A stretch of 64,000 nt of DNA, from positions 1 through 64,000 of the IMG/VR virus record IMGVR_UViG_3300021088_000005. The stretch is one strand, 5' to 3'. The DNA is from a virus. Position 1 is the first letter of the stretch, and each line of letters opens with the position of its first letter. A program made the translations under genes and the position numbers. Positions 35,726 to 40,983 of this stretch are shown here, piece after piece. A model generated the notes under the pieces. It saw only the letters and a list, made by a program, of their open reading frames with translations. It was not told the origin of the DNA and made no database searches.

Positions 35726-35869
35726 CTACACGTCCGGTTCGAGACCGCTGATATCCGTGACCGAATCGCTCGGGTTCCGATCAGCTAGCTCTTCCGGAGC
35801 TATCACCTTATCGTAGAACTTCGCCCGGATGTCTGCGATCTCTTGGAATAGTTCGTTTAGCTCGGTCAT
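35726..35869 (-). CDS. 47-aa acidic protein coupled (ATGA) to the giant ejection protein
   Basis: MTELNELFQEIADIRAKFYDKVIAPEELADRNPSDSVTDISGLEPDV; below the ORF-track cutoff; 3' end overlaps the convergent + ORF. Confidence 0.5.
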   Translation of the reverse strand: MTELNELFQEIADIRAKFYDKVIAPEELADRNPSDSVTDISGLEPDV

Positions 35870-38800
35870 TTCTTCCCAAATAATGAATTAAGAGTCTTTT
35901 GTCCGTCTTCAACGAACCAACTTGACAGATCACTTCTCATGTGAGTTACGCTCAATATGTAGTCTATAGCCTGAAGTTTGTCTTCGGCAGTCTTAGCCAT
36001 CATCAAGTCCGCCGCGCCGCGTTCCAGTTTGTCCATTCCGTAATCTGTGATTCTCCAGCCACCTTTTCCGTCATCAAAGAAGTTTTCATTTTTCTCGAAG
36101 TGCCCTTCCGGAACCTTGTCGCCAGTTATGTCTTCTGCGTACTCTTCTGGACTGTACGGAGAGTGTCCGGTCAAAATATTGTTAGCGTGAAGTTTGTGTA
36201 TGTTCTCCAGGACAGTATCCGCGATCCTATCTATGCCAGCTTCGTCCCTGACAAACCCGTTCTTAGCATAGTCATTCCAAATCTTCTTCAATCTTCCCGC
36301 AGGAACTACGCTCCACTTCTGACGTTGATCCGGCTTCCCTAGGGAGTCTTTATACTCCGACATGACATTATCGGCAACTTGATTTCGTCTATCGATATAA
36401 TTTTCCACAACTTCGTAGGGAACTTCTCGATTCGGGCTCAGCTTCGGGTTCTCCGGGGTCTTCAGTGCCTCAATTCCGGCTGCGAACTTTGCGCGGCTGT
36501 CCGCAAGTCTCTGCCTGATTGCTTCCGCAGTTATCGGCTCTGTAGCCTTAATGTTTAGGGTTGATCCGGTCTTAGGGTCGTGGAACGATTTTAGCTCATA
36601 CGGCTCCCCAGGGAACATTCGTCCCGCAGGGATAGCGCCAGCGTCACGGATAGCCTCATCAGCTTTTGGGTCTCCGGTGGTAGTCTCGCGTAGTCCTAGC
36701 TTTGGGTTTTCTGGGGTTTCAACTGCTCGTCCAGGTGCTTCCGGACTTCCGCCTTCTGTTCCGGGGACATTTTCTGGATGTCCTGAGCCGCCTTCTCCGC
36801 CATTTGCTGTATTGTTAGCTCCATTTTGTGCTCTCCGTTGAATTTCGTTATGCATTGCTCGAAGTCTATCTTCGCTATAGTGGAACTGACGAGATAGACC
36901 CGGCTCTCTAAACCCTGCATTCTCCTTAATGATATCAGAAACTTCCGGTTTTGTCAAGTGAGATTTTGCAGAGTCTACTGCCTGATGTAGTTTTTCTTGA
37001 ATCTCACCCTCAGTATACCCCGCACGCAACATCATCCTACGCGCCATACCAGCGTCTGATCCTGGGCGCGTCGAGTCGAAATTGACATTATTGTCTCTTG
37101 GCTGCTCGTTAAAAACCTCATCCGCAGCTATTCCACCCATCAAACTACGTACAAGACTAGGAACACTCTCTGGCTTTATAGCGCCACTAGGGTCGGATAT
37201 ATTATCGTACTCGAATCTTACAGCGCCCCTCTTCGCTCCTATGGCCTGCAAATCTGGATGAAGATGGCTAAGCATGCCGCGAACATCTAACCCGCTAGCA
37301 AGCCCCACAAGAGCATGGCCTAGCTCATGTCGCTCTACATTTATATCCGGTTTTGTGAATTCCTGGTTAACTCCGGGGTTCCCAAAACGGTGCGACTTGC
37401 CAGTTGGAACCTTATACTCCCCCGCAGGAATCGGCTCGGGTCCGGTCGTGGTGCCCCAAGTAGACTCGCCTGGGAACTTCTTCTGCGCAACTCTGATAGC
37501 ATCCTTACTACTGAACGCAGGAACTTTCTCAATGCGGGAGTTTCCCTGGGAGTCTATGACTTCAATAGGCCAGTTTTGTTTTCTGGCTGATTGAAGCTCA
37601 TGCATCAGGTCTTCGGATTCTTCCGCGCCTAGCTTTGGGTTTTCCGGCTTTAAATTTTCAATTGGCACGTATGCCTTTATAGTTTTATCCCCTCGCATAT
37701 CTGCCGCAGCTATTCTATGATTGCCATCTACAACTTCACCGTCTCGGTCAAGAACAATAGCTGGAAGAGGAGATTTCAACTTCGCGTATTTTTCAGCTAA
37801 CGCTGGATTGTAATTATCTCCAGCATATACATATCCTTTTCTAGGAACAAAATTATCCAAATCTTCTTGGGTGTCGGGAACACGCTGTATAGGAACATCT
37901 TTTAAAGCGTATTTTCCTGCACCGTATTGTTTAGTGAGATATCTCGCGTCCTCTTCAGATATCTTAGATGTCTTCATCAAGTGGTTAACTACATCGCTGC
38001 CGTCTACTATTTTTGTCCCTAGCTTTGGGTTTGCTGGTCTGGGCTGGGGCTCTGTTGCGGCTGATTCATTTCTTCGTACGCCTTCGCCTTTTCCTTTAGC
38101 AGGTCCCTTCCCCTTCGGTCGAAGCTTTGCTGGATTCCCTTCCTCAGTTGCTGTTTCTGATCCGGCTCCATTCCCTGTAGCTGGTCCCTTAGCTCCTGGG
38201 CCATTTGCTGGAGGCTTCCCTGTTGGCTGTTCATTTGATGCTCCCTTAGTGTCCTGTATAATTTGTTGTAGCCTGCCAGGAGACACATGATGCTGATTGT
38301 CTAGTCCTGCTTCTCTAAACGACGCGTGATCTTCGATTACTTTCTGAACTCCGGGCTTAGACAGCACTGTCGCAGCATCTTCCTGTGCCTGACGTATCAT
38401 CTTGTTAGCTTCTACTTCTGTGAACCCGGCGTCCTTAAATATGCCTTTCAACGCTTTCATATCCGCGCCTAGGTGATGGTTCTCTCCTGCTGGAATATCG
38501 TGGTAAAGGTCATTGGCGACCCCACCAGCCACGTATGTAGCCGCGATGTCCGCCATGCGTGATTTAATCTTGTTCCAGTCAATCTGTTTATCTTCACCTA
38601 CGAAGTCGGTCCAGTCAATCGGAGTGCTCATTAAGCTACCCAAAGATACGTTCTCCGGGTGAATGTGACTTCTGATTCCGTCAGACACCTTAAGCCCGCG
38701 TGCATCTGCGACAACCGCATGAGCTATGTCATGAACTATTCCCATTTGGGTGTCCATTCCCTTAGCTAACCCGGAACGCGGAGCCTGTAGTAGTGGCTCG

Positions 38801-40983
38801 ACCTTCTCCGGAAGAGTAGCGGTTGGCAACTGCTTACCGGACTCTATGTTCTGCTGCATTTGCTTCTGCGCAGCTATTGTGTCTGCGGCATTCGCCTTGT
38901 TAATCTCGGTAACTATCTTCTTCTCATCCGGCTCTAGCGGCAATCCATGGCTCTGTTTATCTGCGACATCGTCCAGGAATCTCTTCTCTAGATCGACATA
39001 GCTAGACTTCCCTAAAATCTCACCGTAGTGGCTAGCGATAGCAACATGCAGTGGGGTGTTCTCGCGTTGCGGAACGAACATCTGCATAACCGGGCTAACG
39101 GGTTCCGGTGGGCCATATTGTCCCGCAGCTTTGCCTTCGTAGCCAAGGTTTGTTAACGCTACTCCCTTGTCCTTGACAGTGTGAATTCGGTCAGCTAGCT
39201 GATCTCGGGTCAGGTCTCCAGGAGCTATTCGCTTACCTAGTCGGTCTCCAAATGCTTTACCCATTCCATACCCGAGTGTTCCGCCGACTTCCGCACCTAC
39301 TACTCCACCTACATTGTATCCAATAGTTCCGCCTATTCCCGCTCCGCCTGCGGCTCCTAGGGTCGAAGCACCCTTCGCCAAGTTCTTAACAAACCATCCG
39401 GACTCTCCTGAACCTCGAACCGGCTGATCGCCCTTGCTGGCTACCTTCTCTAGAGCAGTCTTAACACGTATAATAGACGCTTGGTCTCTGCGCAGTCCTC
39501 TTACTCCGCTAACTCCACGTTCTTGCAGCGCACCGTCTATGCCAGTTCGGAGGCTATCCGCAGCCCAATACCTAGCTGCAAATTCCGGATCGGCGCGTAG
39601 TGCGGTAGCGACATCCCAGAAATTTCTCTTAAGAGTAGCTCTATTCAGTGCGTTTATGTCTGTGAGTATCTTTTGTGCTTCTTCTACCGTAGGATCGGTT
39701 AGGTTGAACTTTTGTGACAGATGGTTCATTCCGTCTTCTACAAAATCCTGCTGCGGACTGTCAGCTAGTTTATCGCGAACGTCTTGATTAACATTTGTAG
39801 TGATCGCGTCCTTTCCATACTTGTCTACGTGTCTTCCTACTTCGGTGTCGATATCATCTGATAGCTGCTGAGCAGCGTTCACATGATCTTCTACCGTATG
39901 GATAGGATTAGTTTCATGCAGCTTCTCCGAAGCGCCTAAGAATATCTGTGCATCTTTATCCGAATATGCGCCTTGTGTTGTATTAGTCGGAGGAGCCATC
40001 TTCTTAAAGTTATCAACAGCTTGGCGAACTGCTCTATCCTGCTTCTCACTAGTCTTCGGTATGTTTTGAACCTTACGGTTTAGCCTATCCAGTTCTGCCC
40101 CGGCCTCTATTCTTGCAGTGTGGGCGTCCTGTAGCGCAGTGCTTGCCTTACGTGAGTTTGCAGCCGCAGCGGACGCTCGGTTGTTCGCGTCGTCTACGTG
40201 CTGCTGAGTTACATTCGGATCGCCGCTATCGTGGGCCTGGGTTATTCTCTCGGCTTCCTCGCGTGCTTTGACAGCCTGGTCGGTAGCGATCTGCTGTTCT
40301 CTCAAACGCTGATCGAACATAGCGGTCGCAGAATCATGCGTAGCGCTAGCGACCTGATGCGCACGGATATCTGACCGGAAGGTCTTAGCGATTCTCTCAT
40401 GCTCGCCGCCGATTAACGTAGCTGCGATAGCAGGTACAGATTCTCCTACTATTCCTGCGATGTCTCCCTTGGCTGCTCTTTCGCGTATTCCTTCTGGGTC
40501 GAGACCAGCAACTCCGCCGATACCGCTAGCGACTGAAGATATAACAGGCTGGCCTTCATCGCGAGCCCTAGTATATCCTTCGTATACGCCTTTCGCGCCT
40601 TCGTACGCGCTATAAACTCCGCCTGTCACAAGATTAGCAGCGACAGACTTTGCGGTTTCGGTTGCAGAACTAGGCAACATAGCCTTTGTTCCCGCAGCTA
40701 CTCCGGAACCAAATCTAGACACCGCTCCCGGTTGCGCCTGCGGTTGATTATCGAACCCGAAATCGTATCCGGCCTGCGGAGTGGGCGCAGAAGCTGGTGC
40801 CGCAGCAACTGACTGAGGCTTCCCGAATCCGAAATCGAATCCGGACGATTGTGGCTGAGCCTGCGGGTCAACTGGCCCTAGTGGTTTGCCCGAAATGTCG
40901 TATGCAACACCGTTTTCTACCCTGGTCGCGTTAGGATATTGCGCAGGGGTTTGAATCTGCTCTGGTTCTGGAGTATCAACCAT
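35866..40983 (-). CDS. Giant multidomain (polyvalent-type) ejection protein: two M41-like peptidase domains, ParB-like domain, unknown C-terminal domain
   Basis: Last large gene of the virion module; HDIAH...AGGVA and HELGH...MGGIAAD; PAIVLD..GEVVDGNHRIAAA; four ENPKL-type linkers. Confidence 0.75.
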   Translation of the reverse strand: MVDTPEPEQIQTPAQYPNATRVENGVAYDISGKPLGPVDPQAQPQSSGFDFGFGKPQSVAAAPASAPTPQAGYDFGFDNQPQAQPGAVSRFGSGVAAGTKAMLPSSATETAKSVAANLVTGGVYSAYEGAKGVYEGYTRARDEGQPVISSVASGIGGVAGLDPEGIRERAAKGDIAGIVGESVPAIAATLIGGEHERIAKTFRSDIRAHQVASATHDSATAMFDQRLREQQIATDQAVKAREEAERITQAHDSGDPNVTQQHVDDANNRASAAAANSRKASTALQDAHTARIEAGAELDRLNRKVQNIPKTSEKQDRAVRQAVDNFKKMAPPTNTTQGAYSDKDAQIFLGASEKLHETNPIHTVEDHVNAAQQLSDDIDTEVGRHVDKYGKDAITTNVNQDVRDKLADSPQQDFVEDGMNHLSQKFNLTDPTVEEAQKILTDINALNRATLKRNFWDVATALRADPEFAARYWAADSLRTGIDGALQERGVSGVRGLRRDQASIIRVKTALEKVASKGDQPVRGSGESGWFVKNLAKGASTLGAAGGAGIGGTIGYNVGGVVGAEVGGTLGYGMGKAFGDRLGKRIAPGDLTRDQLADRIHTVKDKGVALTNLGYEGKAAGQYGPPEPVSPVMQMFVPQRENTPLHVAIASHYGEILGKSSYVDLEKRFLDDVADKQSHGLPLEPDEKKIVTEINKANAADTIAAQKQMQQNIESGKQLPTATLPEKVEPLLQAPRSGLAKGMDTQMGIVHDIAHAVVADARGLKVSDGIRSHIHPENVSLGSLMSTPIDWTDFVGEDKQIDWNKIKSRMADIAATYVAGGVANDLYHDIPAGENHHLGADMKALKGIFKDAGFTEVEANKMIRQAQEDAATVLSKPGVQKVIEDHASFREAGLDNQHHVSPGRLQQIIQDTKGASNEQPTGKPPANGPGAKGPATGNGAGSETATEEGNPAKLRPKGKGPAKGKGEGVRRNESAATEPQPRPANPKLGTKIVDGSDVVNHLMKTSKISEEDARYLTKQYGAGKYALKDVPIQRVPDTQEDLDNFVPRKGYVYAGDNYNPALAEKYAKLKSPLPAIVLDRDGEVVDGNHRIAAADMRGDKTIKAYVPIENLKPENPKLGAEESEDLMHELQSARKQNWPIEVIDSQGNSRIEKVPAFSSKDAIRVAQKKFPGESTWGTTTGPEPIPAGEYKVPTGKSHRFGNPGVNQEFTKPDINVERHELGHALVGLASGLDVRGMLSHLHPDLQAIGAKRGAVRFEYDNISDPSGAIKPESVPSLVRSLMGGIAADEVFNEQPRDNNVNFDSTRPGSDAGMARRMMLRAGYTEGEIQEKLHQAVDSAKSHLTKPEVSDIIKENAGFREPGLSRQFHYSEDRLRAMHNEIQRRAQNGANNTANGGEGGSGHPENVPGTEGGSPEAPGRAVETPENPKLGLRETTTGDPKADEAIRDAGAIPAGRMFPGEPYELKSFHDPKTGSTLNIKATEPITAEAIRQRLADSRAKFAAGIEALKTPENPKLSPNREVPYEVVENYIDRRNQVADNVMSEYKDSLGKPDQRQKWSVVPAGRLKKIWNDYAKNGFVRDEAGIDRIADTVLENIHKLHANNILTGHSPYSPEEYAEDITGDKVPEGHFEKNENFFDDGKGGWRITDYGMDKLERGAADLMMAKTAEDKLQAIDYILSVTHMRSDLSSWFVEDGQKTLNSLFGKK
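36696..36824 (-). CDS. Overprinted 42-aa helical protein after peptidase domain 2
   Basis: SD GGAG-8nt-ATG; MELTIQQMAEKAAQDIQKMSPEQKAEVRKHLDEQLKPQKTQS; homologous to 38019..38234. Confidence 0.7.
   Translation of the reverse strand: MELTIQQMAEKAAQDIQKMSPEQKAEVRKHLDEQLKPQKTQS
38019..38234 (-). CDS. Overprinted 71-aa helical protein after peptidase domain 1
   Basis: SD AAGGGAG-6nt-ATG; MNSQQGSLQQMAQELRDQLQGMEPDQKQQLRKGIQQSF...TQS. Confidence 0.7.
   Translation of the reverse strand: MNSQQGSLQQMAQELRDQLQGMEPDQKQQLRKGIQQSFDRRGRDLLKEKAKAYEEMNQPQQSPSPDQQTQS

Follow-up and report, generated by a model that had tools for sequence, protein, structure and literature searches.

Probable overprinted genes in the linkers of a giant phage virion protein, with products predicted to bind the adjacent FtsH-fold peptidase domains

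We analysed a window of 64,000 nucleotides (nt) of viral DNA, positions 1 to 64,000 of the IMG/VR virus record IMGVR_UViG_3300021088_000005, which carries on its minus strand the gene for a giant multidomain (polyvalent) virion protein (35866..40983), recognized from the list of open reading frames (ORFs) and its translation of 1705 amino acids (aa). Two peptidase domains of this protein, called A and B here, are each followed by a linker, and the DNA of each linker also contains, in the +1 frame, a small ORF (small genes A and B). Since the start codons are conserved in relatives, the alternative frame shows selection, a scan of the whole giant gene singles out these two stretches and both frames are free of stops, the two ORFs are very probably real protein-coding genes overprinted on the linkers. 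Their products are candidates for binders of the preceding peptidase domains, and we consider the chance about even that they act as cognate inhibitors, that is, as a safety catch on each domain.

Both ORFs were found where the original prediction had placed them, on the minus strand and in frame +1 relative to the 1705-aa ORF, and each with its own Shine-Dalgarno (SD) sequence and ATG. Small gene A (38019..38234, minus strand) encodes 71 aa plus stop and has the SD-like sequence AAGGGAG 6 nt upstream of its ATG (38241..38247, minus strand). Small gene B (36696..36824, minus strand), which is homologous to A, encodes 42 aa plus stop and is preceded at 8 nt by the SD sequence GGAG (36833..36836, minus strand), which arises from main-frame Arg-Arg codons. 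Each ORF ends at a TAG formed by AAG CTA GGx of the main-frame inter-domain motif NPKLG; PANPKLG (38017..38037, minus strand), with its CTA-G, gives the stop of small gene A, and PENPKLG (36694..36714, minus strand) gives that of small gene B. This shared stop, which had been predicted, holds for both ORFs of the window but is not conserved among relatives, and the CTA of the motif is nothing special, being the commonest Leu codon in the giant gene. The ungapped alignment of the two small proteins over 32 residues contains 11 identities, just as claimed. When the alternative-frame peptides of A and B were compared, the best segment score was 66, against 28.7 ± 4.5 for shuffled sequences (n = 500, maximum 48), while the main-frame translations of the same DNA scored 29 against 37 ± 6.7 in shuffles and thus had no similarity beyond that of shuffled sequences. 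Taken by itself, the window gives no reason for surprise at an open +1 frame: after re-encoding of the main-frame peptides with the codon usage of the gene, the probability of an open +1 frame was 0.54 for A and 0.68 for B.

The ORFs and their start signals are kept in relatives. Homologous loci were taken from viral and metagenome contigs of soil phages (L002-L015 and L016-L024); a single-sequence scan of viral contigs gave no homologous loci, and they were found with alignment-based scans. The identity of their peptidase domains to those of the window runs from 87% (L007) down to about 25%. A +1 ORF after the peptidase domain was present in 22 linkers, belonging to 12 loci of type A and 10 of type B. 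The 12 type A ORFs share a conserved core with QGSLQ, LEPEQK and then KGIQQSFD.R.KDLLKEKA, and the conserved form of type B, from 10 distinct loci, has LTTEQL, MSPE(E/Q)KA and then R. The start codon is ATG in 20 of the 22 ORFs, including every ORF of type B, and GTG in two. The main-frame codon that supplies the AT of this ATG varies among AAT, GAT, CAT and TAT (N, D, H and Y), so that the start codon is conserved through changes of the main-frame amino acid. Every one of the 10 type B ORFs has (A)GGAG 6-8 nt before the ATG, made by main-frame Arg-Arg codons, and most type A ORFs have an SD like the AAGGGAG of small gene A. Stops or lost start signals in homologues had been named in advance as the evidence that would speak against the two genes, and the opposite was found: the ORF, the ATG and the SD are kept, and the alternative frame is under purifying selection.

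The two frames were compared in several ways. First, over the same nucleotides, the pairwise amino-acid identity among type A loci is 0.54 in the alternative frame and 0.34 in the main frame, and among type B loci the values are 0.44 and 0.30, with the alternative frame higher in 42 of 45 pairs. Second, the differences between type A loci fall on alternative-frame codon positions 1, 2 and 3 in the numbers 437, 282 and 635, which means that the third position of the main frame is the least variable, the reverse of ordinary coding. Third, the ratio of nonsynonymous to synonymous differences per site (pN/pS, Nei-Gojobori) ranges over 0.16-0.73 for the alternative frame and over 0.96-3.65 for the main frame; of the individual pairs, 76 of 78 in type A and all 15 in type B have the lower value in the alternative frame. 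The frame-specific test of selection that had been suggested gave the alternative frame a pN/pS below 1, and that of the main frame was about 1 or higher. Fourth, a blind scan of the whole 1705-codon gene in 10 homologues with 30-codon windows found the main-frame third position to be the most variable (0.60-0.75) throughout, except in two stretches, at aa ~916-990 and ~1381-1425 (0.31-0.49), and these stretches are the two small ORFs. Finally, across 18 ORFs (1098 codons), no stop was seen in the alternative frame, where 17.8 ± 3.3 are expected from the main-frame peptides and the codon usage of the gene, and none in the main frame, where 11.9 ± 3.3 are expected if the alternative-frame codons are left free. 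The main frame continues past the linkers into conserved domains. We also considered that the +1 frame might be open merely because a hydrophilic linker lacks codons with T at the second position; this fits the window alone, with the probabilities given above, but fails across the relatives, in which no stops were found in place of the 17.8 expected.

The small proteins of types A and B form homologous families (hhalign probability 92.8%, E 4e-7, 35 columns), and it follows that the overlap is older than the duplication of the peptidase module. AlphaFold2 models small protein A as a helical hairpin with helices at residues 8-20 and 24-56, followed by a disordered tail; the predicted local distance difference test (pLDDT) score is 81 and exceeds 90 over residues 10-50. 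Pfam and PHROGs gave sub-threshold noise only for the small ORFs, and the model of the small protein had no PDB fold match by Foldseek and no usable match in the ESM Atlas. A search of 1.84 billion representative proteins with the small-protein profile returned 10 relatives of 60-156 aa, all on short contigs. One of the type A relatives, P0034 (129 aa), has a hydrophobic, probably membrane-spanning C-terminal extension and could be a stand-alone or differently embedded form of the small protein; scans of viral contigs with P0034 and P0037 found nothing.

The peptidase domains themselves are related to FtsH by fold. Domain A (38239..38811, minus strand; aa ~725-915) has the zinc motif HDIAH at aa 751 and was recognized as a paralogue of B with the invariant H..H, H.H and D columns, and domain B (36799..37416, minus strand; aa ~1190-1395) has an intact HELGH at aa 1219 and was recognized from its AlphaFold2 model and fold matches. 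The two domains are paralogues with 27% identity (E 7e-21), and H..H and D are invariant, in the setting of HELGH in domain B and HDIAH in domain A. The model of domain B (pLDDT 85) had only FtsH-family proteins among its top ~40 Foldseek matches, and VIA-align superposed it on 3kds_F with Z 13.4 and a root-mean-square deviation of 3.1 Å over 153 residues; the top 21 rows of that comparison were of the FtsH family and the next had Z 7.1. At the level of sequence, the peptidase profile had no real match among PDB sequences and no match to Pfam Peptidase_M41 at E<=0.1, and no AAA+ module was found ahead of domain A or domain B. For these three reasons the domains are M41-like in fold and yet are not members of the FtsH family; the earlier label of M41-like thus stands for the fold (Z 13.4 to 3kds_F) but not for membership by sequence, and no AAA+ part goes with it. 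As a side observation, two A-type domains in relatives (L012:4001-4597 and L015:4001-4582) have an intact HELAH, so that the Glu-to-Asp change (HDxxH) of domain A is common in the lineage but not universal.

The small ORF is linked to the peptidase domain by position and, in the models, by contact. It follows the domain in 22 of the 23 domain copies examined, the exception being L014. In L011 (2-1172), the homologue of the giant protein stops within linker A and has no downstream domains, but the small ORF (990-1172) is kept; it overlaps the last 131 nt of the giant gene and extends 52 nt past its stop. This arrangement indicates that the small ORF travels with the peptidase domain and not with the linker. 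(The next gene on that contig, 1695-2345, is a collagen-like Gly-X-Y gene.) The peptidase domain and its small gene make up a single module, and the two were duplicated together.

To assess binding, domain A (20-row alignment) was co-folded with small protein A (19-row alignment) alongside three controls. The pair reached an interface score (ipSAE) of 0.78, whereas the best of the three controls had 0.00; in the calibration of this score its mark was met by 58 of 80 solved complexes and by 2 of 110 mismatched pairs, a calibration that is rough here since our own alignments were used. The runs had at least 91% of contacts in common, and the pLDDT of the partner was at least 80. On the domain side, the predicted interface takes in two residues, the second His of HDIAH and the invariant Asp of GAD, which by its position relative to FtsH is likely the third zinc ligand, together with the surrounding helices; on the side of the small protein, it includes the conserved GIQQSF.RR stretch. 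Binding of the small protein to the face of the adjacent peptidase domain that bears the zinc ligands is therefore a prediction, supported in silico only. Of the partner role that had been ascribed to the small proteins earlier, the binding to the adjacent peptidase domain is supported by the controlled co-fold for the type A pair; for the rest we still rely on the reasoning set out below.

Our proposal, in which confidence and doubt are about balanced, is that a binder gene is overprinted after each peptidase domain and that its product probably acts as a cognate inhibitor. In the main frame, the region after the peptidase domain would serve as a disordered, sequence-tolerant tether that ends at the PENPKL border, and the +1 frame of the same DNA would be translated from its own SD and ATG into a helical-hairpin protein (71 or 42 aa). 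The small protein is predicted by the model to bind the peptidase domain encoded just upstream, over the face with the zinc ligands, and it would keep the peptidase from acting in the producing cell up to the packaging or injection of the polyprotein. Once freed, the peptidase could cleave the polyprotein at its PENPKL borders or attack proteins of the host. This proposal supposes that the peptidase would harm the producer cell and that the injected protein would arrive without its partner. A wider and more tentative form of the proposal, which we regard as possible though somewhat improbable, is that the peptidase and its overprinted binder make up a self-contained, duplicable cassette by which a phage could provide a cognate antidote to an effector domain that sits within an injected polyprotein: the antidote would be made in the producer cell only and left behind at injection, and the protease would switch on in the next host and cut at the PENPKL borders. 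As the overlap predates the duplication of the domain, such a cassette would be an ancient, stably maintained dual-coding unit in double-stranded DNA (dsDNA) phages.

Several points weigh against this proposal and should be considered with it. The SD is weak or badly spaced in three type A homologues (L002, L003 and L010). The exception among the domain copies, L014 (L014:112-786), is a stand-alone gene for a 224-aa A-type domain (HDMAH) with no +1 small ORF, although its contig is only 1743 nt long. The support for binding is the confidence of a model, for the type A pair only, and contact with the zinc site fits a cofactor or a structural subunit equally well. Judged from its motif, domain A, which is HDxxH in most relatives, may be catalytically weak, and the need for an inhibitor is less obvious if it is a weak enzyme. 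The toxicity of the peptidase to the producer cell is something that we infer, and the phage is known solely from metagenomes.

Some of these points lead directly to the main rival explanation, which we consider unlikely but worth serious attention, namely that the overprinted genes are real and that their products bind the peptidase as a stabilising, activating or assembly subunit, such as a chaperone or cofactor, which is possibly co-packaged. The evidence for dual coding and for binding serves this explanation equally; the most confident contacts run along the helices that flank the active site and are not just in the cleft, and domain A, with its prevalent HDxxH, may not need inhibition. 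On the other hand, the predicted interface touches two zinc-site residues, which suggests occlusion, and the domain of L014 occurs without a partner, so its fold is independent of one. A somewhat smaller probability is given to the explanation that the genes are real but have a function unrelated to the peptidase, for example as a regulator or a host-directed factor, and that the disordered linker is just the one part of the giant gene that tolerates a second frame. Overprinting generally favours disordered, sequence-tolerant regions, and the small proteins match no known family, both of which agree with such an unrelated function. It does not account well for the duplication of the small gene together with the peptidase domain, for its retention in L011 although the rest of the polyprotein is gone, or for a co-fold that passes while all controls stay at 0.00; moreover, the other inter-domain borders of the giant protein are short and have no second ORF.

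The two remaining explanations concern the way in which the +1 frame would be read, or whether it is read at all. A programmed +1 ribosomal frameshift, by which some ribosomes would shift at the end of the domain and make a truncated protein with a C-terminal hairpin folded back on the domain, is highly improbable. The predicted contact between hairpin and domain would fit such an intramolecular arrangement equally, and in the window both ATGs are preceded by about 19 open codons of the +1 frame. In most relatives, however, the +1 frame has a stop 1-6 codons before the ATG; in L017 and L019 the distance is only one codon, too short to accommodate a shift site. No conserved slippery motif was seen, the SD is conserved, and the ATG is kept while the overlapping main-frame residue varies; the upstream stops together with the conserved ATG and SD argue for independent initiation. 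Least probable of all is that there is no second gene, the +1 frame being open only because the linker is hydrophilic and has no T-second-position codons, and the similarity of A and B being a relic of DNA duplication. The expectation of an open frame in the window alone is outweighed by the absence of stops among relatives where about 18 are expected, by the stronger conservation of the alternative frame (pN/pS below 1) relative to the main frame, by a gene-wide signal limited to the two ORFs, and by paralogous domains so diverged (27% identity) that a score of 66 in just one frame is more than a passive relic would retain.

Overprinted genes with a probable role as cognate inhibitors thus remain the reading that we prefer, and the gene in which they are embedded also deserves description. 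It sits in the minus-strand structural arm of the phage, beside tail-fibre-like and major-head-like genes. The viral record is about 100.8 kb long with an estimated completeness of 95%, and its two divergent gene arms meet near 35.3-35.9 kb; the relatives come from soil and peat metagenomes, on contigs of about 100 kb. We found 25 homologues of the giant protein, with lengths of 1000-2500 aa. The protein has no Pfam match (E<=0.1) and no PHROGs match, and a comparison of the gene with the GenBank phage collection found no match in DNA or in protein. The homologues exchange ART-PolyVal, GNAT, FtsK_gamma and DUF7178 domains behind a common N-terminal region and peptidase, and because effector domains are swapped behind a shared peptidase part, the giant protein fits the definition of a polyvalent protein given by Iyer et al. 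2017 (PMC5512222).

Two other features of the giant protein were observed. The motif P-(E/A)-N-P-K-L-(G/S) stands at four domain borders (36436-36456, 36694-36714, 37627-37647 and 38017-38037, minus strand), with three of the copies identical at 19-20 of 20 nucleotides, and it is also found at the domain borders of many homologues, in up to six copies in P0025; these are candidate sites for processing, whether by the peptidases in cis or by a head protease. Between the first two NPKLG motifs lies a domain (37639-38016, minus strand; aa 990-1115) with a DGNHR motif that resembles those of ParB/sulfiredoxin nucleases; the domain has no Pfam match even at E<=1.

These results are of interest in several respects. 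Long-lived overlapping genes are textbook knowledge in the tiny single-stranded DNA viruses and RNA viruses and have rarely been documented in large dsDNA phages, and the comparative signal of dual coding described here is unusually clean. Gene callers systematically miss such overlaps, as can be seen from the mere 10 related predictions among the representative proteins that were searched. The proposal offers a concrete model of how a phage could carry a protease inside an injected polyprotein without harm to its own assembly, and the small protein is offered as a predicted small natural binder of an FtsH-fold protease domain. It also suggests that the low-complexity linkers of polyvalent and polymorphic effector proteins are worth screening for hidden partner genes.

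Compared with known systems, the arrangement has several likenesses and differences. In Rz/Rz1 of phage lambda, the larger gene completely encloses a small one, which is read in the +1 frame from its own start and encodes a protein that binds the product of the host gene. The likeness is that a small +1-frame gene with its own start is embedded in a larger phage gene; in contrast to Rz/Rz1, the host gene here encodes a giant virion polyprotein, the small genes lie in the linkers after peptidase domains and occur as two homologous copies, and the small proteins have no lipoprotein signal or Cys and a function other than lysis. Polymorphic toxins and MuF toxins have immunity genes as separate genes directly downstream of the toxin domain. 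A cognate small binder, its binding here predicted, is likewise encoded right after its domain, but the partner in our case is overprinted inside the same gene, and the toxicity and neutralisation of the domain are presumed. Small helical proteins acting on FtsH are known as well, for example SpoVM of Bacillus, an inhibitor of this protease. The CIII protein of phage lambda, a small helical protein, inhibits the M41 protease FtsH competitively and is also its substrate (PMC1838920). Like CIII, the proteins described here would be small, phage-encoded alpha-helical proteins that act on an M41-type zinc protease; unlike CIII, to which they have no sequence relationship and which is the product of a free-standing gene directed at the FtsH of the host, they would be made from an overprinted gene and target the AAA-less M41-like domain of the phage itself.

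The closest framework for the giant protein is that of the polyvalent proteins, whose metallopeptidase domains are, according to a proposal by Iyer et al. 2017 (PMC5512222), responsible for processing the polypeptide. Like them, it is a giant multidomain protein, injected or packaged, whose effector domains vary, and its relatives have ART-PolyVal and GNAT, but its peptidase has the FtsH/M41 fold and does not belong to the MPTase-PolyVal family (no Pfam match). Overlapping genes are not mentioned in that article (PMC5512222), in which the word 'overlap' has 0 occurrences. The original prediction knew of no description of the present arrangement, and our literature search likewise turned up no phage virion or polyvalent protein with a cognate binder that is overprinted in the linker behind an internal domain and duplicated along with that domain. 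Embedded +1 genes with products that bind the product of the host gene are already known from Rz/Rz1; what appears to be new here is that a cognate binder, as predicted, is overprinted on a linker within a virion polyprotein, directly behind an internal domain.

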